Notes: generated by a model not told the origin, from the sequence alone. A stretch of DNA of 64,000 bases from Verrucomicrobiota bacterium (GCA_049511835.1 JBEKXN010000004.1:81231-145230), one strand, 5' to 3'. Shown: positions 8,994-30,506, counted from the first letter of the stretch. Numbers and translations: made by a program.

Positions 8994-10820
8994 ATGGACG
9001 TGGACATTGTCTGCGTTGGCTTTGGCCCGGCCTCGGCGGGATTCCTTACCACGCTCTCGAAGCAACTCGTCAATGCCGATGGCACACCGGCCGTCGAAAG
9101 CGCAACCTCGCCGGGCCTGCCGCCGCAGGTGCTCTGCTACGAGCGCGCCGATGACATCGGCTTCGGCGTTTCCGGGGTCGTGACGAAAGCGCGGGCTTTG
9201 CGCGCAACATTTCCCAATCTCGACCGGGCGCAGATTCCGATGACCGTGCCGGTCGGCGAAGAAAAAGTCCTTTATTTGCTCGACCCCATCGGCGCCAGCC
9301 GCCGCTCGGCCACATTGCGCGCGGCGGATGCGATGATTCGCACCTTCAAGTGGATACTGCCGGTGGAACATGACGCGTTGAATCTGCCGTGGACGCCACC
9401 ATTCCTGCACAAGCATGGCGGCTTGATCCTTTCCATGGGCCAGTTCATGCAATGGGTCGGCACACAGGTGCAAAGCACCGGCACGGTCCAAATCTGGCCC
9501 GGCACACCCGTATCGCAGGCGCTCATCGAGGCGAACAAAGTTGTCGGCGTGCACTTGCTCGACCAGGGTGTGGACAAAAAGGGGAAGCCTGCCGATGGCT
9601 TTACGCCCGGCATGGACATCCATGCCGCGCTCACGGTCGTCGCTGACGGCCCGGTCGGGCCCATCGGCCAGCAACTGGACGCTCACTTCGGCATGCCCGA
9701 TGGGCATCACACTCGTGATTGGGCGGTGGGCATGAAGTTTGTCGTGGATTTGCCTGCCGACACGCCGCTCAAACCCGGCACCGTGCTGCATACGTTCGGT
9801 TATCCGGAGCCGGAGATTTTCGGATTCTTCTACGTGCATCCTGACCGCGTCGCGTCGCTCGGCATTTTCGTGCCGTCGTGGTTCGACAGTCCGATGCGCA
9901 CGGCCTACCGCCAGCTCCAGCATTGGATGCTGCATCCGTATCTCTGGCGTTACCTCAAAGGCGGCAAGCTCCGCTCGTGGGGCGCGAAAACGCTCGGGGA
10001 ATCGGGCCGCCGCGGCGAGCCGCATCTCGTTGGCGACGGCTATGCGCGCGTCGGCGAAGGCAGCGGCAGCACAAATGTGCTCACCGGTTCCGGCGTGGAT
10101 GAAGCCTGGGCCACCGGCACACAACTCGCTGAGGCCGTGCTCGAATTGCTCAAGGCAAAGAAACCGTTCACGAAACAGAACCTTGACGAAGCCTACGTGA
10201 AACGCCGCCGCGCGAGCTGGGTGGAAAAGGAAGCGGTTGTGGCCGAGAAATCTCGGGATGGTTTTCAAAAAGGCGTGGTGAGGGGCATGATCGGCATGGC
10301 GCTGGCGGGTTTGACCAACGGCAGACTCACACTCGCCGGCGATCCCGTGCCGCCCTGGAAACGCATCCCATCCATCGAAGAATATTATCGGGGTCGTATC
10401 TCGCCGGAAGAAATCGCCAAGCTTCACGAAGAATGCCAGGCGCGGAACAGGTCACTCCACGGCGCGCTGATGGAGAAAGCCGGCTGGCCTGCGATTCCTT
10501 ACGACGGCCGGTTGCTCATGTCGCATCAGGACGCGCTACTCATGGGCGGCAAGGTGCAGGCGCCCGCCGGTTACGCCGACCACATCGTGTTTCTTGACCC
10601 GGAACTGTGCGAGAAATGCGGGGCGAAAATTTGCATCGAGGCTTGCTCCGGCCAGGCCATCACGCTGGGGAACGACGGCGTGCCGTCATTCGACCGCGAG
10701 AAATGCGTTCACTGCGGCGCGTGCATCTGGAACTGTGCGCAACCATTGCCGGACAATCCGGAACGCACCAACATTGCCTTCCGCGCCGGCACCGGCGGCC
10801 TGCACTCGGCGGAGAATTAA
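8994..10820 (+). CDS. electron-transfer flavoprotein:quinone oxidoreductase (ETF-QO, FixC/FixX-like fusion)
   Basis: DIVCVGFGPASAG is a dinucleotide-binding motif. C-terminal 4Fe-4S motifs are CEKCGAKICIEAC and CVHCGACIWNC. The tail is AGTGGLHSAEN. An alternative GTG start lies at 8955. Confidence 0.75.
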   Translation: MDVDIVCVGFGPASAGFLTTLSKQLVNADGTPAVESATSPGLPPQVLCYERADDIGFGVSGVVTKARALRATFPNLDRAQIPMTVPVGEEKVLYLLDPIGASRRSATLRAADAMIRTFKWILPVEHDALNLPWTPPFLHKHGGLILSMGQFMQWVGTQVQSTGTVQIWPGTPVSQALIEANKVVGVHLLDQGVDKKGKPADGFTPGMDIHAALTVVADGPVGPIGQQLDAHFGMPDGHHTRDWAVGMKFVVDLPADTPLKPGTVLHTFGYPEPEIFGFFYVHPDRVASLGIFVPSWFDSPMRTAYRQLQHWMLHPYLWRYLKGGKLRSWGAKTLGESGRRGEPHLVGDGYARVGEGSGSTNVLTGSGVDEAWATGTQLAEAVLELLKAKKPFTKQNLDEAYVKRRRASWVEKEAVVAEKSRDGFQKGVVRGMIGMALAGLTNGRLTLAGDPVPPWKRIPSIEEYYRGRISPEEIAKLHEECQARNRSLHGALMEKAGWPAIPYDGRLLMSHQDALLMGGKVQAPAGYADHIVFLDPELCEKCGAKICIEACSGQAITLGNDGVPSFDREKCVHCGACIWNCAQPLPDNPERTNIAFRAGTGGLHSAEN

Positions 10821-10862
10821 GGCGTGGGCCGACCTTTACCGTTGGCACGCTCGCGAGACCTA

Positions 10863-12521
10863 TTACTGCTTGCTGGCGCGGTAAAAGCGACACAGGTGGT
10901 TGCTGGTCTCCTGGTCCGTATAAAACAGCACATTAGTGGGCGCAGTGTTGGTAATTACCGGGGACCAACCCACCAGGTTCGTGGAGGCCTCAATCACCAC
11001 CGTCCCGGGTGAAGTCAGGTTCTCCAGCCAAATTTGGAAGGGACCATTGGTCAATTTGCAGTCGCTAAACATCGGCGTATAGGCGTATTTGATCGTGGCA
11101 ATGTCATAATAGCCTTCACTGCCAACCGAACCTCCCGTCACGATTACATAACCGCTTTGGTCAACCACCACGGCGGCGACCGTGTCCTCACTGTTCCCGG
11201 GCCCGTTGTAGCGGTTGGTCCAGAGCGGCACCCCCGCGCCCGAATACTTGATTGTCACGTAATCTTTATTGTAAGGAATAGGATAGTCTTGGCTGGTTGA
11301 ATACCCCGTCACCACCACGTTGTAATTGCCGTCCACCGCCACGGCGACGGCCTCGTCAGAAATGTTCAGCGGCCCGTCGTAGCGGTTGGTCCAGAGCGGC
11401 GTGCCCGCGCTCGAATACTTGATCGTCGCGTAATCTCGATTGTAAGGATAGACGTTTGTGCTGGCTGAAGACCCCGTCACGATCACGTTGTTGTTGCCGT
11501 CCACCGCCACAGCGTAGGCTTCATTGTCGTTTGCCGGTCCGTCGTAGCGGTTGGTCCAGAGCGGATACCCCCCGCTCCAATACTTGATCGTCGCGTAACT
11601 ACCCGACGAATTCCCCGTCACGATCACATTGTTGTTGCCGTCCACCGCCACGGCGCAGGCATCGTCATCGCCGTTCCCGGGTCCGTTGTAGCGGTTTATC
11701 CAGAGTGGCCACCCCCCGCTTGAATACTTGATCGTCGCGTAATCGAAATGGCCCCCCACGTCAGCCGACATCCCCGTGACGATTACGTTGTTGTCGCCAT
11801 CCACCGCCACAGCGGTAGCCATGTCAGTGCCGTTTGCCGGCCCGTTGTAGCGGTTGGTCCAGAGTGGCACCCCCGCGCTCGAATACTTGATTGTCGCGTA
11901 ATCGTGATTTCCGCTACCCCACGAATACCCCGTCACGATGACGTCGTTGTTGCCGTCCACCGCCACGGCGTAAGCCAATTCATTGCCGTTCCCCGATCCG
12001 TCGTAGCGGTTGGTCCAGATCGGCACCCCCGCGCTCGAATACTTGATTGTCACGTAATCGTCATTATTTCCGCTACCCAACGAAGTCCCCGTCACGATGA
12101 CGTCGTTGTTGCCGTCCACCGCCACGGCCTTGGCTTCATCGTCGTTTGCCGGTCCGTCGTAGCGGTTGGTCCAGATCGGCACCCCCGCGCTCGAATACTT
12201 GATTGTCACGTAATTTCCATAGTCAGGAGAGTCGTTTGGGATGGCTGAATCCCCCGTCACGCTCACGTTGTTGCTGCCGTTTCTCGACTGACTTGGAGGG
12301 GGAACGGCGAGGTCGCCTGCAAACCCTGTCACGATTACGTTGTTGCTGCCGTCCACCACCATGGCACGGGCAATAGCGCCGTTTCCCGGTTCGTGATAGC
12401 GTTGTACCCAGGCTTCAACGGCAGACTCGGCGCGCGTTGGCGTGGGAATGGACGACAGGAGTGATACCGACAACAGACACGAGGCCGTCAGCGTTAGCCC
12501 AATTCTTTCGGCAGTTTTCAT
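10863..12521 (-). CDS. SBBP (beta-propeller) repeat protein, secreted, with PVC-type C-terminal beta-sandwich domain
   Basis: Signal peptide. About 8 tandem units of Y(A/V)TIKYSSAGVPLWTNRY(D/N)GP...AVAVDGNNNVIVTG. The tail ends ...CRFYRASKQ. Confidence 0.8.
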   Translation of the reverse strand: MKTAERIGLTLTASCLLSVSLLSSIPTPTRAESAVEAWVQRYHEPGNGAIARAMVVDGSNNVIVTGFAGDLAVPPPSQSRNGSNNVSVTGDSAIPNDSPDYGNYVTIKYSSAGVPIWTNRYDGPANDDEAKAVAVDGNNDVIVTGTSLGSGNNDDYVTIKYSSAGVPIWTNRYDGSGNGNELAYAVAVDGNNDVIVTGYSWGSGNHDYATIKYSSAGVPLWTNRYNGPANGTDMATAVAVDGDNNVIVTGMSADVGGHFDYATIKYSSGGWPLWINRYNGPGNGDDDACAVAVDGNNNVIVTGNSSGSYATIKYWSGGYPLWTNRYDGPANDNEAYAVAVDGNNNVIVTGSSASTNVYPYNRDYATIKYSSAGTPLWTNRYDGPLNISDEAVAVAVDGNYNVVVTGYSTSQDYPIPYNKDYVTIKYSGAGVPLWTNRYNGPGNSEDTVAAVVVDQSGYVIVTGGSVGSEGYYDIATIKYAYTPMFSDCKLTNGPFQIWLENLTSPGTVVIEASTNLVGWSPVITNTAPTNVLFYTDQETSNHLCRFYRASKQ

Positions 12522-12729
12522 ATCATTGGCTTTCCAATGAGTCTTATGGCTTTTAGCGGCATCATTCCATTAAGTCAAGGAATAATTGCGTGTGATGGTC
12601 GGAAACGCGCACTCCCGTCACAGTGTTTTCGAGGCGGACGGCCGGGTAATTTGTCGCGACTTTGAAACGCGGGGCATCCTGAAATCGCTTTTCGCATTTG
12701 TACCGCCCAATTACTCTTCTGGAGAACTG

Positions 12730-12828
12730 ATGAACATTTCCATCATTCTCGCCCACGTGAATCCGGGCGGTTTCAATCATGCCATCGCCAACAGGGCGGC
12801 GGAAACGGCGCACTCGGCGGAGAATTGA
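12730..12828 (+). pseudogene. 5' fragment of a flavodoxin-like NAD(P)H dehydrogenase paralogue (copy of 28964..) fused to an ETF-QO-like tail
   Basis: MNISIILAHVNPGGFNHAIAN matches MNISIILAHPNPGSFNHAIAN at 28964. It then reads ...AHSAEN-stop, using the 17-nt gcactcggcggagaatt that also ends the ETF-QO gene. Confidence 0.7.
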
Positions 12829-12845
12829 ACAACCACGGTTAAGCG

Positions 12846-15530
12846 TCACGTTGTTTGCGGGATTTCAGCATGGTCTTCGGCCAGACGTTTGAGGACGCTT
12901 ACGCGGCCGCGGTTTCCATCCACCTGCACCAGGTCGCCCGTGTGAATGACCCGCGTGGCCGAAGCCACGTTGGTCACCGCCGGAAGACCGTATTCGCGCG
13001 CGACGATGCTGCCGTGCGAGAGAATCCCGCCTTGTTCCATGACCACGCCGGCGGCAGTGATGAAATACGGCGACCACGCCGGATCGGTGAACGGGGCGAT
13101 GAGAATTTCGCCGGGGAGAACCTGCTGGTGCTCATCCGTGCGCAAAATCACGCGGGCGGGGCCGGTGACAATGCCGGGAGAAACCGGAATGCCTTCCAGA
13201 AGTTTCGCGCCGACGTTCGCCACCGGCCAGCCGGGCGCGTTTGGATCGAATCTTCCGATCACAACCGGCGGCGGGGTGAGCTTCAGGTTCTTTTCGTATT
13301 CCCGCCGGCGCAATTCGATGCGTTCGCGCCAATCGAACGAAGCGCTGCCCATCGCGACCGGTTCAATCTCGGAAATTTCCAGGAAGAAAATGTCATCGCG
13401 GCCGGACAAGCTGCCCTGCTCGTGGAGCCGCTGGCCGAGGGCCAGGAGAACGCGGCGCACGAAGGCAATCCGCCGGACGCCGAGGTTCTTCAAATGCTCC
13501 CGGAAGACGGCCAGTTCCTGCGCGCGGCGCAGCGAGCGCGAGAATATCCAGCGTTTGATTGGATTCTTCAGCCGCGCGCGGCATTGGACGGTCAAGCGTT
13601 CCCGTTCGTCCGCCAGCCGCCGTTGATTTTCCAGCGGGTTGGACTGGCCCAGCGAGCGAAGATAGCCGCGCACCAACCCCAGGATATAATCGGGGGTCTC
13701 GCTCCAACGGGCGTTGGACAGCTCCAGTTCGCCGCGGCAATGATGTCCGTGCTCGGCCATGAAGGCATCCCAGACGGCCAGGAATTTCCGGCCGTGTTCG
13801 GTGCAGCCAAGCCTGGCGCGGACCTCCGGCCAATTGTTTTCGGAAGACACAACGCCCTCTGTGTCGCTGTCGGCGTGGGCAAGTGCCGCCAGTCGCCAAA
13901 GAGCCAGGCCAGCTTCCGCGACCGGCAGGCCGCCCAACGCGGCAAACAAGCGCAGCGACACGCCGGGTTCGCCCAGCCAATTGCGGCAAACTTTCTGAAA
14001 CACCGGAAGCACCCCCGCCTGCACCGCCAGGTAGAGAACATCCGCGTCCTTGAAAACTTCCCGTACGTACTGACCGCAAAGCCGGGTCAGCTCCGGCGTG
14101 GACAGGGCTTCGAGGTCCAGGCGGTCGAGTTCGTCCGTTTGTTTCTTAAAGCGGGCCAGCCAGGCCCAGCCACGCCGGCGGGACGAGTGGGTGATGAGGT
14201 CGTAAGCGATGCGGGGCCAGGAGAGGATGTATTTCGGCCAGCGGAAACCCAGATCCGGAAGATCCTCCGGCGGGATGGACAACGGGGTCTGGTGGTAGGA
14301 CTCCACCAGGTCGCCTCCCAGTGTTCGGGTAAATTCAGGAAACCCCTTCCGCAGGAAAGCGAATGGTTTGACGGCGGCCACAAACGTGTTGGCGTTGAAG
14401 TAGAGCCGGCCGGCGACAAGATCCCCGACCAGCGAAACGCGCCGGATATCCGCGCCCACCAGACGAAAGATGGAACCGACCACCGTCAGCAAGGATTGCA
14501 GCATGGACCACGTCATCGGCGTCACCACGTCCGGCATCGCTTCACCCGTGTTGACGTTGGTCCAGATTTGCCGGTCCTCCCATGTTTTGACCGGAGCTTT
14601 GGTTGTGATCGGACGGGACTGCAACAGGAACAGTTTGCCATCCCACTGCGCCCACTCGATGTCCTGCGGCGAACCAAAGAGGCGTTCGGTCTGACGAGCC
14701 AGGTCGCACAGGTTTTTGAGAGTTGCGGACGAAAGCAACTCATTTTCGGGCGAAGCCAGCACGCGCCCCGTTCGCTTTTCAACCACCATCCGTTCGGGCT
14801 GAACTGTTCCCTGCACCAGTCCTTCGCCCAAACCGCTCACGCACTCCACGACGAACCGGTCCGTTGCTCCCGTCAGCGGATCGGCGGTGAACGCGACTCC
14901 GGCGTGGCCGGCCTCCACCATTTCCTGCACCACCACTGCCATCCTGGCCTTCTCCGCCGGCACCCGCTGCTTCGCCAGGTAAACGAGCGCCCGCTCGGAG
15001 AAAAGCGACAGCCAGCACGTCTTGATGGCAGCCAACAACGCGTCCTCTCCGCGCACATTCAGAATGGATTCAAACTGACCGGCAAAAGACATTCCGGCTG
15101 CGTCCTCGACGGTCGCGCTGGAACGCACGGCAAAGCTCCGTTCTTCACCCAGTTCCCGCCACGCGGACAGCACTGCATCCTTCACCATTTCCGGCACGGG
15201 AACCTCCGCCAGACAGAAGCGGACTTCCCGGCTCAGTTCAGCAATTTGCCCAAGTTCCTTGCCGGAACATTGCGCCAGCAGATGGGATAAATCAGTGCGC
15301 CTCGGACACGAAGCCAGGAAGAGATCGAACGCCGTCGTCGTGACACAAAAACCGCACGGCACCGGCTGACCCGCCGCGATCAATTTGCCCAGGTTAAACG
15401 CCTTGCCGCCCACCAGCGACCGGTGGTTGTCGCCAGTTTCCGCCAAGCGAAGCACGAACACAGCGGTTTTGTCTGTTGCCGCCAGCACCGCCATGCTCCC
15501 CTCAGAATGGGTTGAAGATATCTTTTTCAT
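12846..15530 (-). CDS. PEP-utilising phosphotransferase, three-domain PpsA/rifampicin-phosphotransferase-like architecture
   Basis: N-terminal ATP-grasp motif GGKAFNLGKLIAAGQPVPCGFCVTT. Long central domain. C-terminal swivel-His domain ...GGILSHGSIVAREYGLPAV. The start MKKISS at 15530 overlaps the upstream stop (ATGA). Confidence 0.75.
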   Translation of the reverse strand: MKKISSTHSEGSMAVLAATDKTAVFVLRLAETGDNHRSLVGGKAFNLGKLIAAGQPVPCGFCVTTTAFDLFLASCPRRTDLSHLLAQCSGKELGQIAELSREVRFCLAEVPVPEMVKDAVLSAWRELGEERSFAVRSSATVEDAAGMSFAGQFESILNVRGEDALLAAIKTCWLSLFSERALVYLAKQRVPAEKARMAVVVQEMVEAGHAGVAFTADPLTGATDRFVVECVSGLGEGLVQGTVQPERMVVEKRTGRVLASPENELLSSATLKNLCDLARQTERLFGSPQDIEWAQWDGKLFLLQSRPITTKAPVKTWEDRQIWTNVNTGEAMPDVVTPMTWSMLQSLLTVVGSIFRLVGADIRRVSLVGDLVAGRLYFNANTFVAAVKPFAFLRKGFPEFTRTLGGDLVESYHQTPLSIPPEDLPDLGFRWPKYILSWPRIAYDLITHSSRRRGWAWLARFKKQTDELDRLDLEALSTPELTRLCGQYVREVFKDADVLYLAVQAGVLPVFQKVCRNWLGEPGVSLRLFAALGGLPVAEAGLALWRLAALAHADSDTEGVVSSENNWPEVRARLGCTEHGRKFLAVWDAFMAEHGHHCRGELELSNARWSETPDYILGLVRGYLRSLGQSNPLENQRRLADERERLTVQCRARLKNPIKRWIFSRSLRRAQELAVFREHLKNLGVRRIAFVRRVLLALGQRLHEQGSLSGRDDIFFLEISEIEPVAMGSASFDWRERIELRRREYEKNLKLTPPPVVIGRFDPNAPGWPVANVGAKLLEGIPVSPGIVTGPARVILRTDEHQQVLPGEILIAPFTDPAWSPYFITAAGVVMEQGGILSHGSIVAREYGLPAVTNVASATRVIHTGDLVQVDGNRGRVSVLKRLAEDHAEIPQTT

Positions 15531-17695
15531 TTCACGGGCTGGAAGTCTTTGTGGCCCGTCTGCCACAGGAGGAATGCGTACTGGTCCGCGAAATTCTTGA
15601 AGGTGACAACCTTCTCCTCCGTGAAGTGGCCGTTGTCGTAGTTCACCTTCATCAGGACGGGCTTTCCCGAGGCCGTTGCCGCCTGCAAGGCAGCCACGAA
15701 CTTGCCAGGTTGCCAGGCTGGGCATCGGGGATCGTTCCAGCCACCCACACCCATAACCGCAGGGTAATTTACACCCTTCTGGACGTGCTGGACTCCGTCC
15801 ATCTCGAACAGAGCCTGGCACTCAACGGGATCTTTCACTGTGCCAAATTCCGGCGTGTCGCCCGCACCAAAGGGCCGGAACTCATGACGCATCGCATTCG
15901 CGACCCCGACATTGCAAACTGCGGCAGCAAATAAATCCGGGCGTTCCGTGATAGCACGGCAGATCAGGATTCCGCCAGCACTGGTGCCAGTAACTGCGAG
16001 CTTCCGGGGACTGGTATATCCCTTTTTCACAAGGTACTCCGCGCAGGAAATGAAGTCCTTCCATGTGTTCGGTTTGGTAGTCTTGTAGCCGGCTTTGTAC
16101 CAAGCCCCGCCCTTTTCGCCGCCGCCCCTTACGTGCGCAAAAGCAAACACCACACCTCGGGCTGCCAGTAAGTTAACGCGAATGTTGAAGTAGGGGGTAT
16201 AACTAAACCCGTAAGCGCCATAGCCAGTAAGGATGCAGCTGTTTGACCCATCCAACGGAATACCCTTCTTGTAAATGATGGAGAGCGGAATCATTGTGCC
16301 ATCGTGCCCGGGCACTTCAACTTCTTTGGAGACTAGGTTCTCGAAGCCTGGATACGACATGTCCGTGTTGAAAATGCTCTTCGCGAAGGTGTCCTTCTGC
16401 GCATCAAAATCATAGATCGTCAGGGGTGAAGTCCAGGAGGTGATATACACCAGACAACGATCCGTTTTCCAATCCGGACAACTGACGTCCACGGTCCCGG
16501 ACGCCGGAAGTTTGATTTCTGCGATCTTGCCGGTGGTTAGGTCGTATTTGATGAGACGGCCTACAATCCCATCTGAATAAACGACGAGGAGATAGTGCTT
16601 GCTCTTGGTAATGGATTGGATGGAGTCAGCCCCCTCGGGAATCACGGTCTCGGCGTGTTCCCAGTCAGGGTGCTTCACGCTCGTCCGAACAACCTTATAC
16701 TTTGGCGCACCTGCATGGGTGACGGCGTAAACGTAATCCCCGTAGAATTCAAACCCTCGATATTCAGACCCTCGATACACCAGATTATCTGAGGGTTTAC
16801 ACAGGACATCCCATTTGATTTTCTTGTGCTTCAGTTCGGAGGTGGGAGCATAGAAAATCCGCATCTCCCACTGCGAGGTCTCCACTCTCCCGATGATGTA
16901 GTCAGGGTAGGATTCATCAATGAAAGCAACGGGCCTCTCCTTTGCCGTGATCCCCAGTTCAGGGTTGCTCTCATCGCTGAAGATATCTCTGTCCATGGCA
17001 GTTTCGGTGCCAAGTTTATGCACTTTGGTTTTGCGGTTCAGTAGGACATCGGGGCTCTTGATGTCAGCGACCTTGCCGAAGTCATAGAAAAACGACTTGC
17101 TGTCCTTCGTCCACCCCAAGGCTGCAAAGGAGGGATAAATACGTTCGGGCAACAGCGTTCCCCGTTCCACGTCCAAAACACGGATTTCTGAATACTCAGC
17201 GCCACCCGAGGAAAACCCCATGGCGACGTATTTCCCGTCCCACGAGGGGAGGAAGGAATGGATGGTTGTTGTCACACCAGCCTTGTATGTAGCTGGATCG
17301 AAGAGCAGTTTTTCAGCACCATCCCATCCCTCGCGGAAGTAGAGCTTGCCCACGTTTTCGCCACCCAAAGTCTTCTTGTAAAAGACCCGGCCATTTTCAC
17401 ACATGATTGTCGAGTAAACCACAGGTTCGAGCTTGTCCAACGCCATCCATTCCTTCGCGAGGGCATCCCTGCCGGGAATCTTCGCCAGCAGGTCGTCGGT
17501 CAATTCCGCCTGAGCCTTGAACCAGGCTTCGACCTCCTTGTCTTTTAGGTCCTCCAACCAGCGGTAAGGATCGTTGTAAGTCTTCCCAAAGTAGGTGTCG
17601 GATGCATCGACGGTTTTTGTCGGCGGATAGTTCCACTGGGCAAAGCATGGCATGGCAGCCAAGACTGGGAGGACGAGGAAAAGAAATCTTTTCAT
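15527..17695 (-). CDS. prolyl oligopeptidase (S9A), secreted
   Basis: Signal peptide MKRFLFLVLPVLAAMPCFA. YFGKTYNDPYRWLED. GTSAGGIL is the GxSxG nucleophile motif. Confidence 0.85.
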   Translation of the reverse strand: MKRFLFLVLPVLAAMPCFAQWNYPPTKTVDASDTYFGKTYNDPYRWLEDLKDKEVEAWFKAQAELTDDLLAKIPGRDALAKEWMALDKLEPVVYSTIMCENGRVFYKKTLGGENVGKLYFREGWDGAEKLLFDPATYKAGVTTTIHSFLPSWDGKYVAMGFSSGGAEYSEIRVLDVERGTLLPERIYPSFAALGWTKDSKSFFYDFGKVADIKSPDVLLNRKTKVHKLGTETAMDRDIFSDESNPELGITAKERPVAFIDESYPDYIIGRVETSQWEMRIFYAPTSELKHKKIKWDVLCKPSDNLVYRGSEYRGFEFYGDYVYAVTHAGAPKYKVVRTSVKHPDWEHAETVIPEGADSIQSITKSKHYLLVVYSDGIVGRLIKYDLTTGKIAEIKLPASGTVDVSCPDWKTDRCLVYITSWTSPLTIYDFDAQKDTFAKSIFNTDMSYPGFENLVSKEVEVPGHDGTMIPLSIIYKKGIPLDGSNSCILTGYGAYGFSYTPYFNIRVNLLAARGVVFAFAHVRGGGEKGGAWYKAGYKTTKPNTWKDFISCAEYLVKKGYTSPRKLAVTGTSAGGILICRAITERPDLFAAAVCNVGVANAMRHEFRPFGAGDTPEFGTVKDPVECQALFEMDGVQHVQKGVNYPAVMGVGGWNDPRCPAWQPGKFVAALQAATASGKPVLMKVNYDNGHFTEEKVVTFKNFADQYAFLLWQTGHKDFQPVK

Positions 17696-17811
17696 AATGG
17701 GAAGCTCCAATGAATTATTGATCGGAATGTGCTTTTAATGTTCCGCGAACATGGGTGATTCGGTCTGGTTAACAGGAAGGTAAAACAAATGATGCGGATG
17801 GTAGTTTTCAT
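17692..17811 (-). pseudogene. 39-codon remnant of a fourth hydrolase paralogue (signal-peptide stub), bridging two cistrons
   Basis: MKTTIRIICFTFLL matches the paralogue N-termini MKTAIRAICFTLLL and MTTAIRVLCFMILL, then diverges. ATGA overlaps at both ends. Confidence 0.5.
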
Positions 17812-19583
17812 TTTAGTTTCTTTCCCTCGTGATTTAACCCCGTAATACTGCGGACTACCGCCGTCACTTCTCCCTGGCCATTCTTGATGAAGGTGTATCG
17901 CATGTGATTGATCTTGCAGAAAAAGTTCGTTTCCGATTCGGGATACATATCGAAGGCGCCCTCGAGAACGTTCTCGCCCCAGGCTTGCCCGAACAACTGG
18001 TCTCCCTGCCGCCAGATCGTCAGTTTGATTCCCGTGGGATACGCGGCGTCCGGCGCGACTTCGTAATGGCCGACACAGGCGTCAAGAAGTTTTGGGGCCA
18101 GCTTGATGGCAACAGGCCGTTTCAGCGGTTCGGGGGCTTTGGGCGGCTGATCGGAGATTTTCTCATAATAAAACTCTCTGCCCTGGAAGTGCACGGTTAA
18201 GCCGGTCACCTTGCCTCGTGTATCCCGGGAAAAGGTCATGGGTATGCCGCTCAACCTTTCAAAAAAACGATTTTCCGATTCCGGCAATAATTCGATGGTG
18301 AGAGGCGGTAATAATACATCAACCGGCCACGATCTTGATCCTGTGGCCTGGGCGAAGAGCCGGTCCCCTTCACGGCAAATACCGATGCCGGATGGGATCA
18401 TATTACTCGACACGAGCGCAACATCAGGTGGACGCTGGTATTGTCCGAGATACGAACCATAAACTTTGTTGCTGATTTTGGTTTCCTTGGGCCGATGGTC
18501 CGACTGCCATTCGCTTTCGAGTAACAAGAGGCCCAAGCCGTAAACGACATCCCAATCTTCCGTGTTAGCCAAGACCACCACGCCGCGCCGCCGGGCCTTG
18601 TCGAAACCGATGAACGTGCGAAAACCGCCCGTACCTCCGGTTTTCCAGATGATTTGTGTCCCATGCAGGTCGGAAATATACCAAGCCAACCCAATGTCAG
18701 TGTCCGGCTCTAAACGAAAGTGCGCGACCTGTGTTTTTTCCATGAGCGGTGTCAGAGTGGATGGCGTCAGGCCGAGGTTGGCAGACACGTATTTGAGCTG
18801 GTCATGGGCCGTCGAGCACAGCGCACCACAGCCCGCCAAGACCCCAAATTCCATAACCGGGACCGCGTAGTTGAGTTCAGAGTGTCCCTGTGCAAACCGC
18901 GCTTTCATTCCGGGCGTCAAAGTGATCCGCGTGCTGTCCATCTTTAGTGGCCGGCAAATCCGATCCACCACGAGCGACTCGTAGTTCGTCCCGGCTTTCA
19001 GCGCAATGACATGACCGAGCAATCCCATTCCTAGGTTGGAATATTGATATTTCGCGCCCGGATCACGGGTCAATCTGTAGCCGGACAGGAAGGCATACAA
19101 CTTTTCGACGGAATAATCAGCATAGGGGCTATCCGCGCTTTTGGTGTCAACGTTGTCAGGATTGTCTGGCAGCCCGGAGGTGTGCGTCGCCAGTTGAAGC
19201 AAGGTGATTTCCTTGCCGTTGCGGGTTGGCATCCTGACCGACTTGGGCAAATACCTGGCCACGGGATCATCCAGCTTCATCTCCCCGCGCTCAATCATGT
19301 CTTGCAGCAACAGCGCGGTAAATGTCTTCGTGACCGAACCGATCTCAAACACGGTACTGCCATTCACTGCCTGATCGGTCCCGTTATCCAGTTTTCCGCA
19401 ACTGACAATGCTGCTGCCATGCTCGTCCACAATGCCGACCACTATGCCGACGTCACGCTTTTCAAGCTCGACGCGCTGTTGCAGGTAAGCGTGGATGGCA
19501 TTGGTGAAATCCTCCGCCGCAGCACGGAATGAAGATGCCGATAACAATATCATGAAACAAAGGACTCGGATGGCAGTGGTCAT
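17808..19583 (-). CDS. beta-lactamase-fold serine hydrolase (class C/EstB-like) with two C-terminal DUF3471-like modules
   Basis: Signal peptide. The SVTK (SxxK), YSN and KTG motifs are all present. C-terminal module LDACVGHYEVAP...LTIWRQGDQLFGQ...PESETNFF...GEVTAVV. Confidence 0.8.
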   Translation of the reverse strand: MTTAIRVLCFMILLSASSFRAAAEDFTNAIHAYLQQRVELEKRDVGIVVGIVDEHGSSIVSCGKLDNGTDQAVNGSTVFEIGSVTKTFTALLLQDMIERGEMKLDDPVARYLPKSVRMPTRNGKEITLLQLATHTSGLPDNPDNVDTKSADSPYADYSVEKLYAFLSGYRLTRDPGAKYQYSNLGMGLLGHVIALKAGTNYESLVVDRICRPLKMDSTRITLTPGMKARFAQGHSELNYAVPVMEFGVLAGCGALCSTAHDQLKYVSANLGLTPSTLTPLMEKTQVAHFRLEPDTDIGLAWYISDLHGTQIIWKTGGTGGFRTFIGFDKARRRGVVVLANTEDWDVVYGLGLLLLESEWQSDHRPKETKISNKVYGSYLGQYQRPPDVALVSSNMIPSGIGICREGDRLFAQATGSRSWPVDVLLPPLTIELLPESENRFFERLSGIPMTFSRDTRGKVTGLTVHFQGREFYYEKISDQPPKAPEPLKRPVAIKLAPKLLDACVGHYEVAPDAAYPTGIKLTIWRQGDQLFGQAWGENVLEGAFDMYPESETNFFCKINHMRYTFIKNGQGEVTAVVRSITGLNHEGKKLK

Positions 19584-20791
19584 TTTAGTTTCTTTCCCTC
19601 GCTATCCGGAACCCCCGCTTGAGAGGAATGGTGGATGACAGCCGTCACTTCTCCCTTGTCATTCTTGATGAAGGTCAATTGCGCGCCATCGATTTTGAGG
19701 AAGAAATTCGTTTCCGATTCGGGATAAATATGAAACGCACCTTTGAGGGTGTTCTCGCCCCAGACTTGTCCGACCAACTGATCTCCTTCCCGCCAGATCG
19801 TCACCTTCCCTACAGTGGGAGACATGGCGTTCGGCGCAAATTCGTAGTGCCCGACACAGGCATCAAGAAGTTTTGCGTCCAGCTTGATGGCAACATGCGA
19901 TTTGGCTGGTGCAGAATCCGGGACGCTGGCACTGGCCGGGAGTGGCACTTTCGGTTCTTTGCCCAGATAGCCGATGCGGCACAGAAACTCATCAACCTCC
20001 TCCGTTGTTATTCCCAGCCAGGGCGGCTGATTGAAGAAGCCGTGCGATTCCCCTTCTGTGAAGCAGGCCTCGACCGGTGCGCCCAGGGATTTGCTCTTCT
20101 GGACAAACTCGCGGATCTCATAGTTAAACTGATCTTCCGTGCCATCGATGAACAATGTGGGAGGCGCTTTTTTGCAGACATGAAAGAAAGGGGAAATCCG
20201 CTTCAGCATCGCGTCGTCCATGCCGGTGAGGGGGTTGTCGGCACCACCGCCGCGCAACGCGATCAGGTTCAGGTCGGGGTTGTAGAGAACCATCGCATTG
20301 GGCTTGGGAGAGACGGATTTGTCGTCGTCCGGAGCGTTGATCCCCTCGGCGAAAAAGGTGCAGGCCGCGAGATGCCCCCCTGCCGAACCGCCCGAAGCCA
20401 CGATACGGTTGGGATCGATGCCGAGCTGGGCAGCATGGCTGCGGACCCAGCGCATGGCGCTGATGGCGTCTTCGACGCATTTGTCGAGCTTGACGCCGTC
20501 CTTGGCGTGGGTACGGCGATCGGCACGGGCACAGACCAAGCCACGCTTGGCGAAGTATTCGGCCTGAGGCTTGAACTGGTCAAGCGTGCCGCCTCCACCA
20601 GAAAAGAAAACAATGGCCGGGTGCTTATCGGCTGGCTTCCAGTCGGGCGGGTAGTCGAGGTCGAGCGTCAGCTTCCGTTCGCCGACGGTCTTATAGACAT
20701 ATTGCGCCTGTGGTTTGGCCTCCGCCGAAGCGCGAAAGGAAAACGCCGATAACAGTATCGTGAAACAAATTACTCGGACGGCAGTGGTCAT
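19580..20791 (-). CDS. alpha/beta-hydrolase (esterase/lipase-type) fused to one DUF3471-like module
   Basis: The signal peptide resembles those of the neighbours. IVFFSGGGG oxyanion region and GGSAGGHLA nucleophile elbow. The C-terminal module resembles those of the flanking genes. Confidence 0.75.
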   Translation of the reverse strand: MTTAVRVICFTILLSAFSFRASAEAKPQAQYVYKTVGERKLTLDLDYPPDWKPADKHPAIVFFSGGGGTLDQFKPQAEYFAKRGLVCARADRRTHAKDGVKLDKCVEDAISAMRWVRSHAAQLGIDPNRIVASGGSAGGHLAACTFFAEGINAPDDDKSVSPKPNAMVLYNPDLNLIALRGGGADNPLTGMDDAMLKRISPFFHVCKKAPPTLFIDGTEDQFNYEIREFVQKSKSLGAPVEACFTEGESHGFFNQPPWLGITTEEVDEFLCRIGYLGKEPKVPLPASASVPDSAPAKSHVAIKLDAKLLDACVGHYEFAPNAMSPTVGKVTIWREGDQLVGQVWGENTLKGAFHIYPESETNFFLKIDGAQLTFIKNDKGEVTAVIHHSSQAGVPDSEGKKLK

Positions 20792-22758
20792 TTTAGTTTC
20801 TTTCCCTCGAGATCTGGAAACCCCGCTCCATGGTCGATCGCCGCCGTCACTTCTCCTTCTTTATTCTTGATGAAGATGAATTGCTCATCAGCGATTTTGA
20901 GGAAGAAATTCGTTTCCGATTCGGGATAAATATCGAAAGCGCCTTGGCCGACGTTCTTGCCCCAGCATTGCGAGACCAACTGATCTTCTTCCCGCCGGAT
21001 CGTCAGTTTCATTCCAGTGGGAAACATGGCGTTCGGCGCAAATTCGTAGTGGCCGACGACGGCATCAAGAAGTTTTGTGTCCAGCTTGATGAGGACGGGA
21101 CGTTTCGGTGGTTCGGGAGCTTTTGGTGGTTCATCGGAGATTTTCTCGTAAAAAAACACCTTCTCGCGGTAGTGCAGCGTCAAGCCGGTCACCTTGCCCC
21201 GGGCATCCCGGGAAAAGGTCATGGGCACGCCGCTCAACCTTTCAAAGAGACAGTTTTCCGATTCCGGCAACAATTCCGCCTGGACAAGCGGAAATAATAC
21301 ATCAATCGGATTTGATTGTGATCCCCACGCTTGCAAGAACCTCCAATCCTCAATCGGACATAAGTTCAATCCTGTGGCTTGGGCGAAGAGCCGATCCCCT
21401 TCGCGGTGAATGCCGATGCCGGGCTGAAAACGCGCGCAAAATACACGACTCGACACTAGAGCAAGGAGCGGGGCCAAAAGACCACAGACCAGGACCACGC
21501 AACCCAAGATGACCCATCGCTTGCGGAAACTGCCAGCACGCCAGAGGAGGATCACCAGCGCCGCGAGGCAGAAAGCCGCCGGGAGAAAGATGGCCGTTTT
21601 GGGAGCGTTGCGGAGATACTGCCGCATAACGAACATTCCCAGTGTAAAATCAGGTGACCGTCGGTATTGTCCTACATACGAACCGTAAACCTGACTGTTA
21701 ATGTTGGTCTTCGTTGGCCGTCGGTCCGATTGCCATTCGCTTTCAAGTAGAAGATTGCCCAACTCGCGCCCTGAATCGTCCGCAGTGGACAAGATTACCA
21801 CGCCGCGACGCCGCGTCTTGTCGAAACAGGCATACGATCTGCCGCCGAACCCCCCTCCGCCGGTATGGATCATTCCCTCTATCTCCGGAGCATAACTGAG
21901 GTTAGTCATGCTTTTTTCCATGAGCGGTGTCAGACCTGACGGAGTCAGGCCGAGGGCCGACACGAATTTCAGCAGGTCATTGGCTGTTGAGTGCAGCCCG
22001 GCAAAGGGTTTCATAGCTCCCCAATCCCAACTCGGTCTCGCATAGCCGAACTCATTGTGTTCGCTGGCGAGCCGAGATTTCAGTTCGCCAGTCAGAGTGA
22101 ACCGGGCGCTATCCATCTTCAATGGCCGGAAAATCCGGTCCACCATGAGAGATTCGAAATCCGTCCCGGCTTTCAGCGCCATGGCCTGGCTCAGCAATCC
22201 CAGGTCCACGCCGCCATGATAATGCTTCGTTCCCGGGTCATTGGTCAATTGGCAGCCGGACACGAAGGCATACATTTTCTCGACGGTAAAATCAGCAAAG
22301 GGATTATCCGCGCGTTTAGGGTCAAGTTTGCCAATTAAGTTTGGAAGCCCGGAGGTTTCCTTCACCAGGTGGCGCAAGGTGATTTCCTTGCCATGGTAGG
22401 TCGGCATTTTGACAGACTTGGGCAAATAGCCGGCCACGGGATCATCCAGCTTCATTTCTCCACGCTCAACCATGTCTAGCAGCAACAAGTGGGTAAATGT
22501 GCCTGTCGCGGAATGAACATTGAACAGTGTGTCGCCATTCGCTTCCCGGTCGGTGCCATTATCCAATTTCCCAAAACTGACAATGCTGCTGCCATGCTCG
22601 TCCACAATGCCGACCACGATGCAGCCGTTTATCTTTTCAGCCTCGACGCGCTGTTGCAGATACGCGTGGATGGCATTGGTGAAATCCTCCGCCGCAGCGC
22701 GAAAGGGAAACGCCGATAACAACAGCGTGAAACAAATGGCTCGGATGGCAGTTTTCAT
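20788..22758 (-). CDS. beta-lactamase-fold paralogue with degenerate catalytic motifs and an internal two-helix membrane insertion
   Basis: Collinear with 17808..19583, but SVTK becomes SATG, YSN becomes HGG and KTG becomes HTG. An extra hydrophobic segment, TAIFLPAAFCLAALVILLW...WVILGCVVLVCGLLAPLLALV, is present. Confidence 0.7.
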   Translation of the reverse strand: MKTAIRAICFTLLLSAFPFRAAAEDFTNAIHAYLQQRVEAEKINGCIVVGIVDEHGSSIVSFGKLDNGTDREANGDTLFNVHSATGTFTHLLLLDMVERGEMKLDDPVAGYLPKSVKMPTYHGKEITLRHLVKETSGLPNLIGKLDPKRADNPFADFTVEKMYAFVSGCQLTNDPGTKHYHGGVDLGLLSQAMALKAGTDFESLMVDRIFRPLKMDSARFTLTGELKSRLASEHNEFGYARPSWDWGAMKPFAGLHSTANDLLKFVSALGLTPSGLTPLMEKSMTNLSYAPEIEGMIHTGGGGFGGRSYACFDKTRRRGVVILSTADDSGRELGNLLLESEWQSDRRPTKTNINSQVYGSYVGQYRRSPDFTLGMFVMRQYLRNAPKTAIFLPAAFCLAALVILLWRAGSFRKRWVILGCVVLVCGLLAPLLALVSSRVFCARFQPGIGIHREGDRLFAQATGLNLCPIEDWRFLQAWGSQSNPIDVLFPLVQAELLPESENCLFERLSGVPMTFSRDARGKVTGLTLHYREKVFFYEKISDEPPKAPEPPKRPVLIKLDTKLLDAVVGHYEFAPNAMFPTGMKLTIRREEDQLVSQCWGKNVGQGAFDIYPESETNFFLKIADEQFIFIKNKEGEVTAAIDHGAGFPDLEGKKLK

Positions 22759-24668
22759 TTCAGTTTCTTTTCCTCGATTTCCTCCTTGGGTAGAGGGCCG
22801 GACAGCGTGACGCTCTGACCGATGGCCGGAATTTTGAAGGGTTGGTAGGGCTGGTAGCCTCGCGTTTGCCAGTCGAACCGGAGCCAGTGGAAATCGGGCG
22901 AATCCAGCGAGGTGTCGAACCGGAATGCAACGCGGGACGGCAAATCCGATGCATCCGATTCCAGGACTTCCACCGTGAGGCCGTCGAGGTCATACCGGTC
23001 GCCTTTTTTGCATCTGGGTCCGCCCACGAGCAGGTTTAAAGTCCTGCAGGCGTAGGCGCTATGGATCGGACCAACATTGTCGCAGAAGAATATGTCCGGC
23101 GCTTTGGATTGAATCACCAGCGTTTTGTCATCGGTCCGCTGGACGTCGAAGCTCGTGCCAGCCGGTACCAGCGCCCGCAAGGTCTTGGGCAGCGGCTGGT
23201 GGTGATACGCTTTGTAAGCAGGTGCATGAACCAACGCGAGCGGCAAGGCGTTGATAATGATCACATTTTCGTTCTCGATGTTTGGCCAATCACCGAGATC
23301 ACTGAGTAAGCACATCCGGTTGAAAAGGAGAGGGGCAACTTTAACTACTGCGACTCTTCCGGCGGCCGCTCCCGGAACATGCGCCAGAATCAGCAGCACG
23401 CAGGCAATCCATGCCGGGATTCGGTAGGCCAACGCTTTCGGCAACCGACTCGGCCGGGTGATCAGGCCGGCGACAAAACTGGCGATCAATCCATAAGCTC
23501 CGACGGCCACAAAGCCAAGGTTCTTGCTGACTGGCACTACCGTGGACGCAGGGATGGCCGCCAGCACCATGATCGCGAACCAGAACGCGGCCGTTTTGTC
23601 CCGGCGCACCCACGGGAGGAAAACCACCAAAGCCGCGACCACGGTCACGCAAAAAAGCGCCGCGACCCTCTGCCGCAATAGAGGATTGAGTGCGCACAAA
23701 ACATCCGGCGCCACGCCGGTAAGTTGGCCGCCAAGCAGAACCATCGCCCGGGGAATCAACACCCGCCCAAACTCAAGCGGATCGTTGGCAGGGTCAGTGT
23801 AAAGGCCCATCTGAAACACACCAAAGCCGGAAAGTGTATAGATGGTCCGCCACAGAACGATCACCAGAATCGCAGGCAAAATCGTCAGCGCCCGGTGGCG
23901 AAGAGAACCCGGCTCGCGCACCAGCGCATACGCGAAGATGAAGGCCAACGTGGAAGCTCCGCCTTCATCCGTGAGAAGCGAAAGCGCGAGGAACACGGCG
24001 GACAACACCAATCCGGAACGGGACTTTGCGGAACGCCATTGATGATGTTCATAAAGACACAGCAGGCCGAAGAATAATGATAGCATGAAGCCGCGGTTTG
24101 CGACGAACGCCACCGGGAAGTAGGTGTTGACATCGAGCAGGAACAACAGCGCCGCGAATCCCGCGACCCATCCCGCTCCCATCAGCTTCCGGTAAACAAT
24201 CGTGATGAGAAACACGATGGCCGCGAACCAGGCGATGTTGTGGGCGTGCATCAGCATGGGCGAGTCGGGAAAAAGCCGGTAATCAAGCCAGTGGGTGAAG
24301 GCGGCGAGCGGCCGCCAAAGGGCAAATCTGAAATTGTCCGGCGTCCACCACGGCAGCGTGCCGTAACTTTTCATCAACGCCATGCATTGCGGATCTCGGC
24401 TGAAGCCGAAAAGGTCGCAGAGCACGGTCCCGAGACTGCCGGAATCCGCAGGGTTGCCCGTCTCGTGCATTCGCGGCGGCAATTGGCTGGGCTTGAGTTC
24501 GACGGCCCGCTGCATCAGATCGTCCACCGCCAAGTCGATCTTCAAGGCGGGCAACATGACCAGTATCGCCCCAATTGCCAGAATCGCTGGAAGGTGGCGA
24601 TGCTCAAGAAGTTTTTTCAAGAACCCCAGCATCTTGGCTCCTATTCCATTCGTTTTCATCGTTTCCAT
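22755..24668 (-). CDS. polytopic inner-membrane protein with C-terminal soluble domain (possible GT-C/ArnT-PMT-like glycosyltransferase)
   Basis: More than 10 hydrophobic helices. An acidic DD pair lies in the first loop (KIDLAVDDLMQ). A soluble tail of roughly 200 aa follows. The family assignment is tentative. Confidence 0.35.
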   Translation of the reverse strand: METMKTNGIGAKMLGFLKKLLEHRHLPAILAIGAILVMLPALKIDLAVDDLMQRAVELKPSQLPPRMHETGNPADSGSLGTVLCDLFGFSRDPQCMALMKSYGTLPWWTPDNFRFALWRPLAAFTHWLDYRLFPDSPMLMHAHNIAWFAAIVFLITIVYRKLMGAGWVAGFAALLFLLDVNTYFPVAFVANRGFMLSLFFGLLCLYEHHQWRSAKSRSGLVLSAVFLALSLLTDEGGASTLAFIFAYALVREPGSLRHRALTILPAILVIVLWRTIYTLSGFGVFQMGLYTDPANDPLEFGRVLIPRAMVLLGGQLTGVAPDVLCALNPLLRQRVAALFCVTVVAALVVFLPWVRRDKTAAFWFAIMVLAAIPASTVVPVSKNLGFVAVGAYGLIASFVAGLITRPSRLPKALAYRIPAWIACVLLILAHVPGAAAGRVAVVKVAPLLFNRMCLLSDLGDWPNIENENVIIINALPLALVHAPAYKAYHHQPLPKTLRALVPAGTSFDVQRTDDKTLVIQSKAPDIFFCDNVGPIHSAYACRTLNLLVGGPRCKKGDRYDLDGLTVEVLESDASDLPSRVAFRFDTSLDSPDFHWLRFDWQTRGYQPYQPFKIPAIGQSVTLSGPLPKEEIEEKKLK

Positions 24669-24856
24669 TCGATTTGGTCAATAACCATTCCTGCCCTTCA
24701 GGAATAGACAAGGGAAATCAGAAAGCCTCACGCTTCGCGGGGTCGGTCAATGGAATCGTGCCATCCAACCAACACGGGTCATCATTTGCTGCGCCGATTG
24801 CGGAGTCCCACGAATCGTCCACGCGCAACACGCCAAAAAGCGGAAGCCGACGATAA

Positions 24857-24946
24857 TTGTCAGCAGGCACAGGCTGGACAATTCCCGGCGACCCGGACCA
24901 GACGAACATTGCCGGCAGGGGCGGCCTGCACTCGGCGGAGAACTAG
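24857..24946 (+). pseudogene. remnant copy of the ETF-QO 3' end
   Basis: Translates as ...PGDPDQTNIAGRGGLHSAEN-stop, compared with the ETF-QO tail LPDNPERTNIAFRAGTGGLHSAEN-stop. A 23-nt identical core lies at 24920-24942 and 10794-10816. Confidence 0.65.
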
Positions 24947-25003
24947 CAGTTCAATGGCTGAATTTCAGTTGAGCTTAAGACGTGGTTGGCACAAGGTTGT
25001 GCC

Positions 25004-26766: not shown

Positions 26767-26882
26767 TTAATAGCCGGAGGTTGTGAACGGATCCCGGCAA
26801 CTGACAATTTTTGCGCTGCCGGCAGGTTTTAATCTTCTTCAACCCTGCGACCTTGCCTTTTTTTGCATATTTCGCCCGTCCT

Positions 26883-26938
26883 CCATAGCGGCATTGCGGA
26901 GGGTGGACGTGTTTGGCGGTTTGCCTTTGTCCGTCCGG
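26883..26938 (+). repeat. conserved upstream module, copy 1 (ends 55 nt before the uxuA ATG)
   Basis: ...gcggagggtggacgtgtttggcggtttgcctttgtccgtccgg is near-identical to 28862-28909. Confidence 0.6.
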
Positions 26939-26992
26939 GTTGAAAACATAAATTTGCCGAGCCGGCAAACTTGTGATTTTGTATGGACTGAG

Positions 26993-28832: not shown

Positions 28833-28861
28833 TCGGGAGCCAGCATCCGTCCTTCCTGGCG

Positions 28862-30501: not shown

Positions 30502-30506
30502 AAACC

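Follow-up and report, generated by a model that had tools for sequence, protein, structure and literature searches.

Three copies of an ETF-QO gene end and about 14 kb of extra genes in the etf operon of a peat Verrucomicrobiota bacterium: candidate scars of serial imprecise recombination

We analysed a stretch of 64,000 nucleotides (the window) of a 216-kb metagenome contig from peat, JGI 3300038428 Ga0427950_000079, assigned to a Verrucomicrobiota bacterium (GCA_049511835.1, JBEKXN010000004.1:81231-145230) which is Limisphaerales-like and belongs to an uncultured lineage represented by metagenome-assembled genomes (MAGs) only. The window carries an ETF-QO-like gene, whose product is a FixC-type flavoprotein with a C-terminal 4Fe-4S domain and whose 3' end reads ...GGCGGCCTGCACTCGGCGGAGAATTAA; its functional "tail" is made of the last ~90-100 nt. 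Two further copies of this gene end lie downstream, and an earlier reading of the sequence alone (hereafter the original prediction) had taken the three copies for the borders of decayed integrative elements which would have brought in some 14 kb of accessory DNA. The gene and the copies are listed below, where L001 and similar handles designate related loci.

8994-10820, + strand: ETF-QO-like gene, 608 aa (Pfam ETFQO_UQ-bd and Fer4; 100% identical to protein P0001; the near-identical protein P0002, also listed at 100%, gave no entry on look-up)
10794-10816, + strand: copy 1 of the 23-mer GGCGGCCTGCACTCGGCGGAGAA, an exact match within the functional gene end; consensus gene end among relatives
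12810-12828, + strand: copy 3, the final 17 nt of ETF-QO and a TGA stop; a head-tail joint, with a gene head on its left
24857-24946, + strand: copy 2, a displaced and decaying ETF-QO tail of the L001 type (..IPGDPDQTNIA-GR-GGLHSAEN*), with a 9-nt deletion and a TAG stop

All three copies lie on the same strand and at the positions first given for them. The 23-mer is found at exactly two sites in the 64 kb (10794-10816 and 24920-24942), with no other site at up to 3 mismatches, while shuffled sequences, against which we judged the significance of all repeats, lead one to expect none, even with 3 mismatches. The 15-mer GCACTCGGCGGAGAA is found at three sites (10802, 12810 and 24928) against 0.21 in shuffles, none of which gave three. 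Copy 2, which had been described as degenerate and still translatable as far as its stop, does translate in this way, ending in ..PGDPDQTNIAGRGGLHSAEN*. The third copy of the last 17 nt was also found between the other two: from its left boundary, copy 3 consists of 17 exact nt, then TGA. Short as it is, copy 3 is not due to chance, because in relatives a remnant occupies the equivalent position, again 17 nt away from where the same convergent gene stops; the orthologous remnant of L004 measures 173 nt.

Our comparison set consists of 80 related loci, the census of tails was made over 81 loci, and the identity of the 23 nt shared by copies 1 and 2 must be read in their light. The identity itself is exact, but nothing makes the 23-mer a special core: where the gene is best conserved, this is its consensus, carried unchanged by 15 of the 81 relatives. 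Across the whole group, the pairwise identity averages 84% over the last 50 nt of the tail, against 64% just upstream. A consensus of this kind is expected to be shared by tails of different ancestry. Outside the functional gene, the remnants decay freely, as seen from the 9-nt deletion in copy 2, an insert of ~50 nt in L005 and point changes in L089. The remnant of L005 (21372-21422) is orthologous to copy 2 and is split by its insertion, which is further evidence that the remnants evolve without constraint.

The site is empty in L001 and L006, which correspond to the SPRUCE 359 MAG (the ETF-QO protein of L001 is 94% identical to that of the window). There, the ETF-QO stop is followed by a 58-nt spacer and then by the genes for a nitroreductase, an OYE, a UxuA, an SDR and an NAD(P)H oxidoreductase, and by etfB and etfA. 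L001 lacks all the inserted genes and its ETF-QO leads straight to the flank which starts at 24.95 kb in the window, so that the ~14 kb between the copies are accessory DNA, as had been proposed. The sequence directly to the right of copy 2 is the ETF-QO/nitroreductase spacer of L001, and copy 2 bears the unusual tail variant of L001, ATTCCCGGC.ACCCGGAC.AGACGAACAT. The ETF-QO gene of the window is 94-97% identical to that of L001 at 10494-10693 and 82% identical over the last 100 nt: there is a switch of ancestry near the end of the gene, and the functional tail is of a type other than that of L001. Hence copy 2 is the displaced original gene end, because the L001-like tail, the spacer and the neighbours are contiguous with it while the functional tail is of another type. 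The regeneration of the functional 3' end, another part of the original prediction, is borne out in the same way.

The genes around and between the copies, annotated with Pfam and NCBIfam profiles, are the following.

5693-8026, + strand: acyl-CoA dehydrogenase (ACAD), the conserved left neighbour, syntenic in nearly all relatives (Pfam Acyl-CoA_dh_N and Acyl-CoA_dh_1)
10863-12521, - strand: cargo unit 1, a secreted beta-propeller repeat protein (SBBP/delta-60 type), convergent with ETF-QO (NCBIfam delta_60_rpt, below cutoff)
12680-12807, + strand: orphan 5' fragment of an NAD(P)H-oxidoreductase gene (Flavodoxin_2), with a leader of ~50 nt and 26 codons from the ATG at 12730
12846-15494, - strand: first gene of cargo unit 2, a phosphoenolpyruvate (PEP)-utilising enzyme resembling phosphoenolpyruvate synthase or rifamycin phosphotransferase (Pfam PPDK_N, Rph_4th and PEP-utilizers; NCBIfam below cutoffs)
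15527-17695, - strand: S9 prolyl oligopeptidase, missing from the otherwise similar block of L005
17808-22758, - strand: three paralogous secreted serine hydrolases with a C-terminal DUF3471 domain, namely a beta-lactamase fold, an esterase and a beta-lactamase fold (Pfam, NCBIfam; repeat families D1, D6 and D7)
22755-24668, - strand: 637-aa protein, last gene of unit 2, with no Pfam or NCBIfam match; its L005 homologue is 78% identical
24947-25003, + strand: ancestral ETF-QO/nitroreductase spacer, collinear with L001 11828-11885
25004-29560, + strand: older cargo, in the same order in L001: nitroreductase, OYE flavin oxidoreductase, UxuA-like dehydratase, SDR and full-length NAD(P)H oxidoreductase (28964-29560) (Pfam)
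29692-31611, + strand: etfB and etfA, the conserved right border

The two segments delimited by the copies had been said to hold an SBBP gene with a gene fragment and a block of seven cistrons. Both elements of the first segment are present, and the fragment can now be identified as the 5' end of a Flavodoxin_2/NAD(P)H-oxidoreductase gene (12730-12807, 84%); in the second segment we counted six open reading frames (ORFs), not seven. The fragment is 84% identical to 28959-29041, at the 5' end of the resident full-length copy of that gene, and a tblastn search with the first 26 residues of the full gene gave 85%. It also matches the heads of the same gene in relatives, and it is fused in frame to the ETF-QO tail. 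The hydrolase genes of unit 2 are tandem paralogs whose junctions are themselves repeats of 64-109 nt with 73-86% identity (17770-17833, 19542-19605, 20750-20813 and 22717-22780; families D1, D4, D6, D9 and D14). Each junction combines the end of a DUF3471 domain, an overlapping stop and start and the start of a signal peptide, and the 637-aa protein has the same junction.

Copy 3 has an ancestry of its own. Together with its right flank, GAACAACCACGGTT..CGTCACGTTGTTTGC, it equals a native junction between ETF-QO and the PEP-enzyme gene, which is intact in L019 and L028; in these two loci the genes are convergent and the PEP-enzyme stop lies natively 17 nt from the ETF-QO stop. Remnants of 173, 36, 29 and 27 nt of this junction persist in L004, L005, L010 and L011, behind four other inserted genes, so that one and the same PEP-side tail is cut at 17, 27, 29, 36 and 173 nt by five different left partners. 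L005 shares the left flank of copy 2 and its remnant. Each displaced fragment has thus kept its native neighbour: the spacer and the nitroreductase for copy 2 (as in L001), the 17-nt spacer and the PEP-enzyme gene for copy 3 (as in L019 and L028). The homologue of the beta-propeller gene in L004 directly follows a tail copy of 47 nt, with the same 3' flank.

The joint between the oxidoreductase head and copy 3 is also present in L089, with point changes of its own in the tail. L089 and the window do not differ at all over 11541-12461, which makes 920 nt of the beta-propeller gene (the overlap 11541-12521 is nearly identical), and they differ by ~10% from 12819 onward; this switch in divergence means that there is a recombination boundary at the tail. 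L089 is an independent metagenome contig from a different sample and assembly, and its possession of the same joint shows that the joint of the window is not an artefact of assembly. The idea of a chimera, in which an assembler would have strung together strain alleles at shared k-mers, draws some plausibility from the source being a metagenome contig and from the coexistence of strain variants of the locus. Besides L089, it has against it that no long k-mer capable of misleading an assembler is shared at the head-tail joints, that the remnants are diverged with indels rather than exact copies, and that the pattern is present in dozens of MAGs from different projects. We hold it to be next to negligible.

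The joint in the window is one of a family. An etfB head of ~21-27 codons (MSTAYQIVVCGSIVPDPLQTLEPV...) runs directly into an ETF-QO tail in L036, L041, L046 (twice) and L071, and the oxidoreductase-head/tail joint of the window has the same topology, the NAD(P)H-oxidoreductase gene being natively just before etfB in many relatives. The five etfB joints sit at microhomologies of 4-10 nt (GAAC/ATCGC, TCGCC, GGAA), at varied positions of the tail. The head of a downstream gene followed by the tail of an upstream gene is the joint expected of unequal or illegitimate recombination, and not of att sites. Moreover, the joined "copies" differ in cargo and in sequence, so that the partners were different alleles and DNA from another strain is implied. 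Degenerate etfB heads were also looked for to the left of copy 2 and of the L019-type tail, in the 70-nt repeat D15 itself (described below) and in the flank of a 48-nt tail in L001, and were rejected, the local alignments scoring no higher than those of shuffles (z -0.6 to 1.4). Three orphan etfB heads (L062 ~14810-14970, L069 ~13795-13945 and L080 ~13337-13495) carry an insert of ~60 nt after ..LQTLEP, beyond which etfB resumes; the interruption falls at the position of the head-tail breakpoint.

This topology is also that of the classic join point of a tandem duplication. One could therefore imagine that the segment bounded by the ETF-QO tail and the downstream gene's head was duplicated in situ and that its two copies then lost different genes, with no horizontal transfer; tandem duplications are frequent in bacteria. 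Yet the oxidoreductase head is just 84% identical to the resident gene, the two "copies" have no cargo in common, and a relative exists with an empty site, without any of the inserted genes. The differing genes and the diverged sequence (84% identity) again designate different alleles, not sister copies, as the partners. Loss, besides, cannot make new gene content and would require several precise deletions. We consider this scenario as scarcely probable.

The same features recur throughout the lineage. We found 44 extra ETF-QO tails in 27 of the 81 loci, all of them on the + strand and 43 of them downstream, and 21 extra etfB 5' heads in 12 of the 44 loci over which the census of heads was made, 20 of them upstream of etfB. 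As controls, six other gene ends gave 5 (ACAD tail), 13 (ACAD head), 7 (ETF-QO head), 1 (etfB tail), 3 (etfA head) and 4 (etfA tail) extra matches, without the uniform bias of strand and side which characterises the ETF-QO tails and the etfB heads. The tail fragments range from 17 to 303 nt in length, and a catalogue of 40 of them was sorted into ~31 junction classes. The distance from the ETF-QO stop to the etfB start is 10 nt at its shortest and 18.9 kb at its longest, the latter in the window; in basal relatives the etfB start is only 10-15 nt past the ETF-QO stop. The cargo is very diverse (410 ORF clusters, mostly enzymes and transporters), and a Pfam census of 177 cargo ORF clusters gave, among the matches listed, metabolic and transport families together with IS200-like Y1_Tnp (2), IstB (1) and TrwC (1). 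Units made of a tail and its downstream cargo differ in order: in L004 the PEP enzyme precedes the beta-propeller gene, and in the window the reverse is seen. L001 itself also holds a 48-nt ETF-QO tail between its OYE and UxuA genes. Because relatives show the same tails, heads and fusions, the ETF-QO/etfB junction is a lineage-wide hotspot of gene gain. This repeated use of the site means that the accretion proposed at the ETF-QO 3' end is real.

What remained to be decided was whether integrative elements could have produced this accretion. According to this explanation, elements whose attP mimics the ETF-QO 3' end would have integrated serially and site-specifically and then lost their integrases, the copies being attL, an internal att and attR. 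It accounts for direct repeats in one orientation, for a regenerated gene end and for an empty site (the latter being also expected under other models), and accretion beside a conserved gene, integrase-less remnants included, is known from tycheposons, which target tRNA genes (10.1101/2020.12.28.424599). Several results go against it. No integrase, transposase or other mobility family was found with Pfam and NCBIfam in any ORF of 10821-24946, a point on which the original prediction had been right. A XerD probe, validated by its match to the integrase of L085 (3e-22), was run on the six-frame ORFs of the 64-kb window and of 99 related or fetched loci: it detected no tyrosine recombinase in the window or in the 10-kb downstream flanks of the 80 relatives, nor any in the 99 loci, the L085 control apart, the search for serine recombinases having no validated control. 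A phmmer search with the L085 integrase as query matched only itself. There is no fixed crossover point, because the leftover tails vary from 17 to 303 nt, in ~31 junction classes. The heads of native downstream genes (the NAD(P)H oxidoreductase, etfB) are duplicated as well and fused head to tail, and such a native head as left partner of copy 3, often that of etfB in relatives, is not predicted by the attL/attR model. The 23-nt "core" is the consensus gene end, and copy 2 is L001-like on either side of it. The tail motif is missing from IMG/VR viral contigs, PLSDB plasmids and GenBank phage records, a weak test because Verrucomicrobia elements are few there.

A genuine element does occur at the site in one locus, and we considered it as a candidate. 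In L012, a MobF/TrwC relaxase element (11828-19600) starts right after the ETF-QO stop, and a related element in L085 (6800-15430) adjoins a tyrosine integrase, the only case of such a neighbour; a third copy is at L086 6900-13300. We rejected an integrative and conjugative element at the ETF-QO site as the source of the copies: no tail repeat accompanies the L012 element within 10 kb, and the elements related to it, some of them integrase-less, lie at other, unrelated sites. The element, which is widespread in Verrucomicrobia, contains a 194-aa gene, HTH_17, HTH_3, the relaxase and a 118-aa gene, and its neighbours differ from genome to genome.

By its composition, the cargo is not clearly foreign. 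Its stretch at 15.5-22.5 kb has a GC content of 0.51-0.55, and the flanks have 0.58-0.63, but equally low values are met elsewhere in the window; among full 3-kb segments, the one at 15-18 kb has the highest tetranucleotide distance (0.274), without being far outside the range of the others. The cargo itself consists of ordinary metabolic and hydrolase genes. All in all, the integrative elements keep the accessory DNA, the accretion and the regenerated 3' end, which stand, and lose the att sites and the integrase, since the varied breakpoints, the native gene heads as left partners and the lack of any detected recombinase speak against an integrase-driven element; we regard their involvement as very improbable.

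We favour, with somewhat more confidence than doubt, the following explanation: the three copies are the scars of a serial "allele concatenation" at the junction between ETF-QO and the next gene, by homology-facilitated illegitimate recombination or unequal recombination. Most likely, the ~14 kb of extra genes entered the etf operon through imprecise recombination between copies of the locus which were organised differently. What we infer from the scars is how the recombination took place, that DNA passed between strains and in which order the events came. DNA from a related Limisphaerales locus with a different cargo would meet a locus of another organisation; on one side, the incoming DNA would pair through the conserved ETF-QO gene, and on the other it would be joined illegitimately, with little or no homology, at some point within the ETF-QO tail of the recipient. 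The incoming piece would bring a complete ETF-QO end, and the old end would be pushed downstream, truncated and non-functional, while still lying beside its original neighbour.

At least two such events would be recorded in the window. In the older one, a block of the PEP enzyme and hydrolases would have been set before an L001-type tail (copy 2), which leads into the spacer, the nitroreductase and the rest; the joint is shared by L005, and the tail type by L004, L011, L019 and L028. The block would have grown later by insertion and by duplication of paralogs of the secreted hydrolases. In the more recent event, a piece comprising an ETF-QO end, the beta-propeller gene and the NAD(P)H-oxidoreductase head would have been set before the PEP-side tail, of which 17 nt were left (copy 3). 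Homologous recombination would then spread the finished units. We searched metagenomes with the beta-propeller protein for a donor having ETF-QO, the beta-propeller gene and a full oxidoreductase gene, and found only L089, whose architecture is that of the window. Homology-facilitated illegitimate recombination is documented by experiments in several bacteria, namely Acinetobacter, S. pneumoniae, P. stutzeri and, in conjugation, E. coli (PMC3240628; references 41, 42 and 47 in PMC5361080), and the same route has been proposed for the effector-immunity arrays of type VI secretion systems (T6SS) and for Rhs orphan arrays (PMC5361080).

Several points weigh against this explanation. The ~30 independent joints at one site are many for events which are rare in experiments, illegitimate events having rates orders of magnitude below those of homologous recombination, as cited in PMC5361080. 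Among the cassettes of relatives, many are compact and share the orientation of the operon, which looks more orderly than illegitimate joining at random. Natural transformation, or another uptake of DNA, is not known in these uncultured bacteria. Microhomology at the window's own head-tail joint could amount to 2-4 nt at most, and no native gene head was recognisable by local alignment to the left of copy 2. Finally, relatives were seen over 10 kb past ETF-QO, and the validated recombinase probe was of the tyrosine type.

The number of joints and the order of the cassettes leave room for more regular processes. Cassettes could be shuffled by homologous recombination, the border tails and heads of 25-300 nt serving as portable RecA arms on a linear fragment or on a looped-out circle (of the Campbell type), so that an illegitimate event would be needed only for the first joint of each unit. 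That the same units are found in varying order and position (the PEP-enzyme and beta-propeller units in L004 and in the window; clusters c17 and c25) fits with this, as does the unit made of the beta-propeller gene and its head-tail joint, identical in two strains whose adjacent PEP-enzyme genes are ~10% apart, with the switch at the tail. Homology would be available, the conservation within the group being 84% over the final 50 nt of the tail. Against it, several remnants (17-30 nt) are below the usual minimum for efficient RecA pairing, their decay argues against an upkeep as recombination sites, and no circular forms were seen. Shuffling alone seems unlikely to us, though by no means fanciful; it complements the serial joining of alleles more than it excludes it.

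In a stronger version, the ETF-QO/etfB junction would be an integrase-independent site of gene capture, where units made of cargo and of an etfB head joined to an ETF-QO tail behave like integron cassettes. The operon junction would act as portable RecA homology, or as the site of an unrecognised trans-acting recombinase; units would be excised, exchanged among strains, re-inserted beside ETF-QO and expressed from the operon promoter. We find this improbable, while granting some credit to a capture mechanism or to portable homology because ~30 joints are many for a rare process and because the cassettes are compact and co-oriented. Features of integrons were not detected: besides the lack of a detected tyrosine recombinase, the folding of the tails equals that of shuffles (z -0.3 to +0.9), and we accordingly rejected an attC-like or fork-stalling hairpin in the tail. 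We also rejected the tail as a source of a Shine-Dalgarno sequence for the next gene: for several tails the next start is 60-230 nt away, or the neighbouring gene is convergent. In basal loci, a GGAG lies ~16 nt upstream of the etfB start.

Arrays of recombination scars are already known, and the closest are the sequential-displacement arrays of T6SS effector-immunity modules and the Rhs and contact-dependent inhibition (CDI) orphan arrays (Kirchberger et al. 2017, PMC5361080). There too, modules enter beside a conserved upstream gene and displace older ones downstream together with 3' fragments of the displaced gene; no integrase is involved, homology-facilitated illegitimate recombination and homologous replacement have been proposed, and the arrays are strain-specific. 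Here, in contrast, the anchor is a junction in a metabolic operon (ETF-QO/etfB) and not a toxin gene, the cargo consists of unrelated enzymes and not of toxin/immunity pairs, with no obvious selection for the retention of immunity, and fragments of both borders are left (upstream tails and downstream heads), often fused head to tail. With homology-facilitated illegitimate recombination as such, our locus shares one homologous anchor (ETF-QO), another end at 0-10 nt of microhomology and foreign DNA added beside the anchor. It differs in that recipient DNA is usually deleted in the laboratory, whereas the recipient gene end is kept here as a duplicate, the process being deduced from scars.

Tycheposons and other islands at gene 3' ends (10.1101/2020.12.28.424599) likewise scatter partial 3'-end copies in the same orientation, with newcomers displacing older cargo and with integrase-less remnants; their repeats, however, are att sites of ~40 nt with a defined crossover and element-encoded tyrosine recombinases, while we found no recombinase, continuous breakpoints (17-303 nt) and a duplicated head of the downstream gene. 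Integron cassette arrays resemble our loci by their compact, often co-oriented, promoterless-looking cassettes past a fixed point, with repeated borders and the newest cassette proximal, but IntI and attI are lacking here, as is an attC-like imperfect hairpin (folding z ~0), and the repeats are fragments of genes which decay and differ in length. The join points of tandem duplications have the same order of a downstream-gene head and an upstream-gene tail, except that here the "copies" hold different genes and have diverged in sequence (84%). The locus is a new, unusually well-documented example of the known scar arrays, which lies inside a metabolic operon and belongs to an uncultured lineage.

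When accessory DNA is bracketed by direct repeats of a gene 3' end, this alone is no evidence of an integrative element, which the automated prediction of islands and att sites should heed. If our explanation is right, this short operon junction, in an abundant uncultured lineage of soil and peat, is a natural record of gene gain without mobile genetic elements, its gap, 10 nt at first, having widened to more than 18 kb via ~30 separate recombination events. The order and the source of the gains can be reconstructed, because a tail, a head or the two together stayed behind as the scar of each event, and population metagenomics at this locus could address the rate and the route by which genes are added inside an operon without mobile elements.

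A few minor observations concern the same region. The 5' end of ETF-QO has seven extra same-strand copies in seven loci, and some genomes have an ACT-domain gene between ACAD and ETF-QO; the ACAD/ETF-QO junction may be a second, weaker hotspot. In L049 (14909-14956) and L068 (7399-7449), an ETF-QO tail remnant contains a hairpin insert of ~50 nt whose ends are inverted (CCGTGAGATAG...TTATCTCACGG); a duplication of GGCGTGCC flanks the insert, which looks like a miniature mobile element. The older cargo of the window contains a 70-nt element (D15) at 26876-26945 (between the OYE and UxuA genes) and at 28847-28916 (between the SDR and oxidoreductase genes), the two being 87% identical. In L001 (13747-13834) the first of them precedes the 48-nt ETF-QO tail, which is not in the window, the missing stretch lying between short GG.YTGAA repeats. 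A direct repeat of 125 nt with 95% identity (32916-33040 and 34620-34744, 1.7 kb apart) lies outside the region considered here. Lastly, the Verrucomicrobia-type locus was also met on contigs titled Bifidobacteriaceae, Acidoferrum, Sulfopaludibacter and Limnocylindrales (L013, L020, L021, L025, L032, L043, L045, L056, L062 and L084); these titles are probably errors of binning or labelling in public MAGs.

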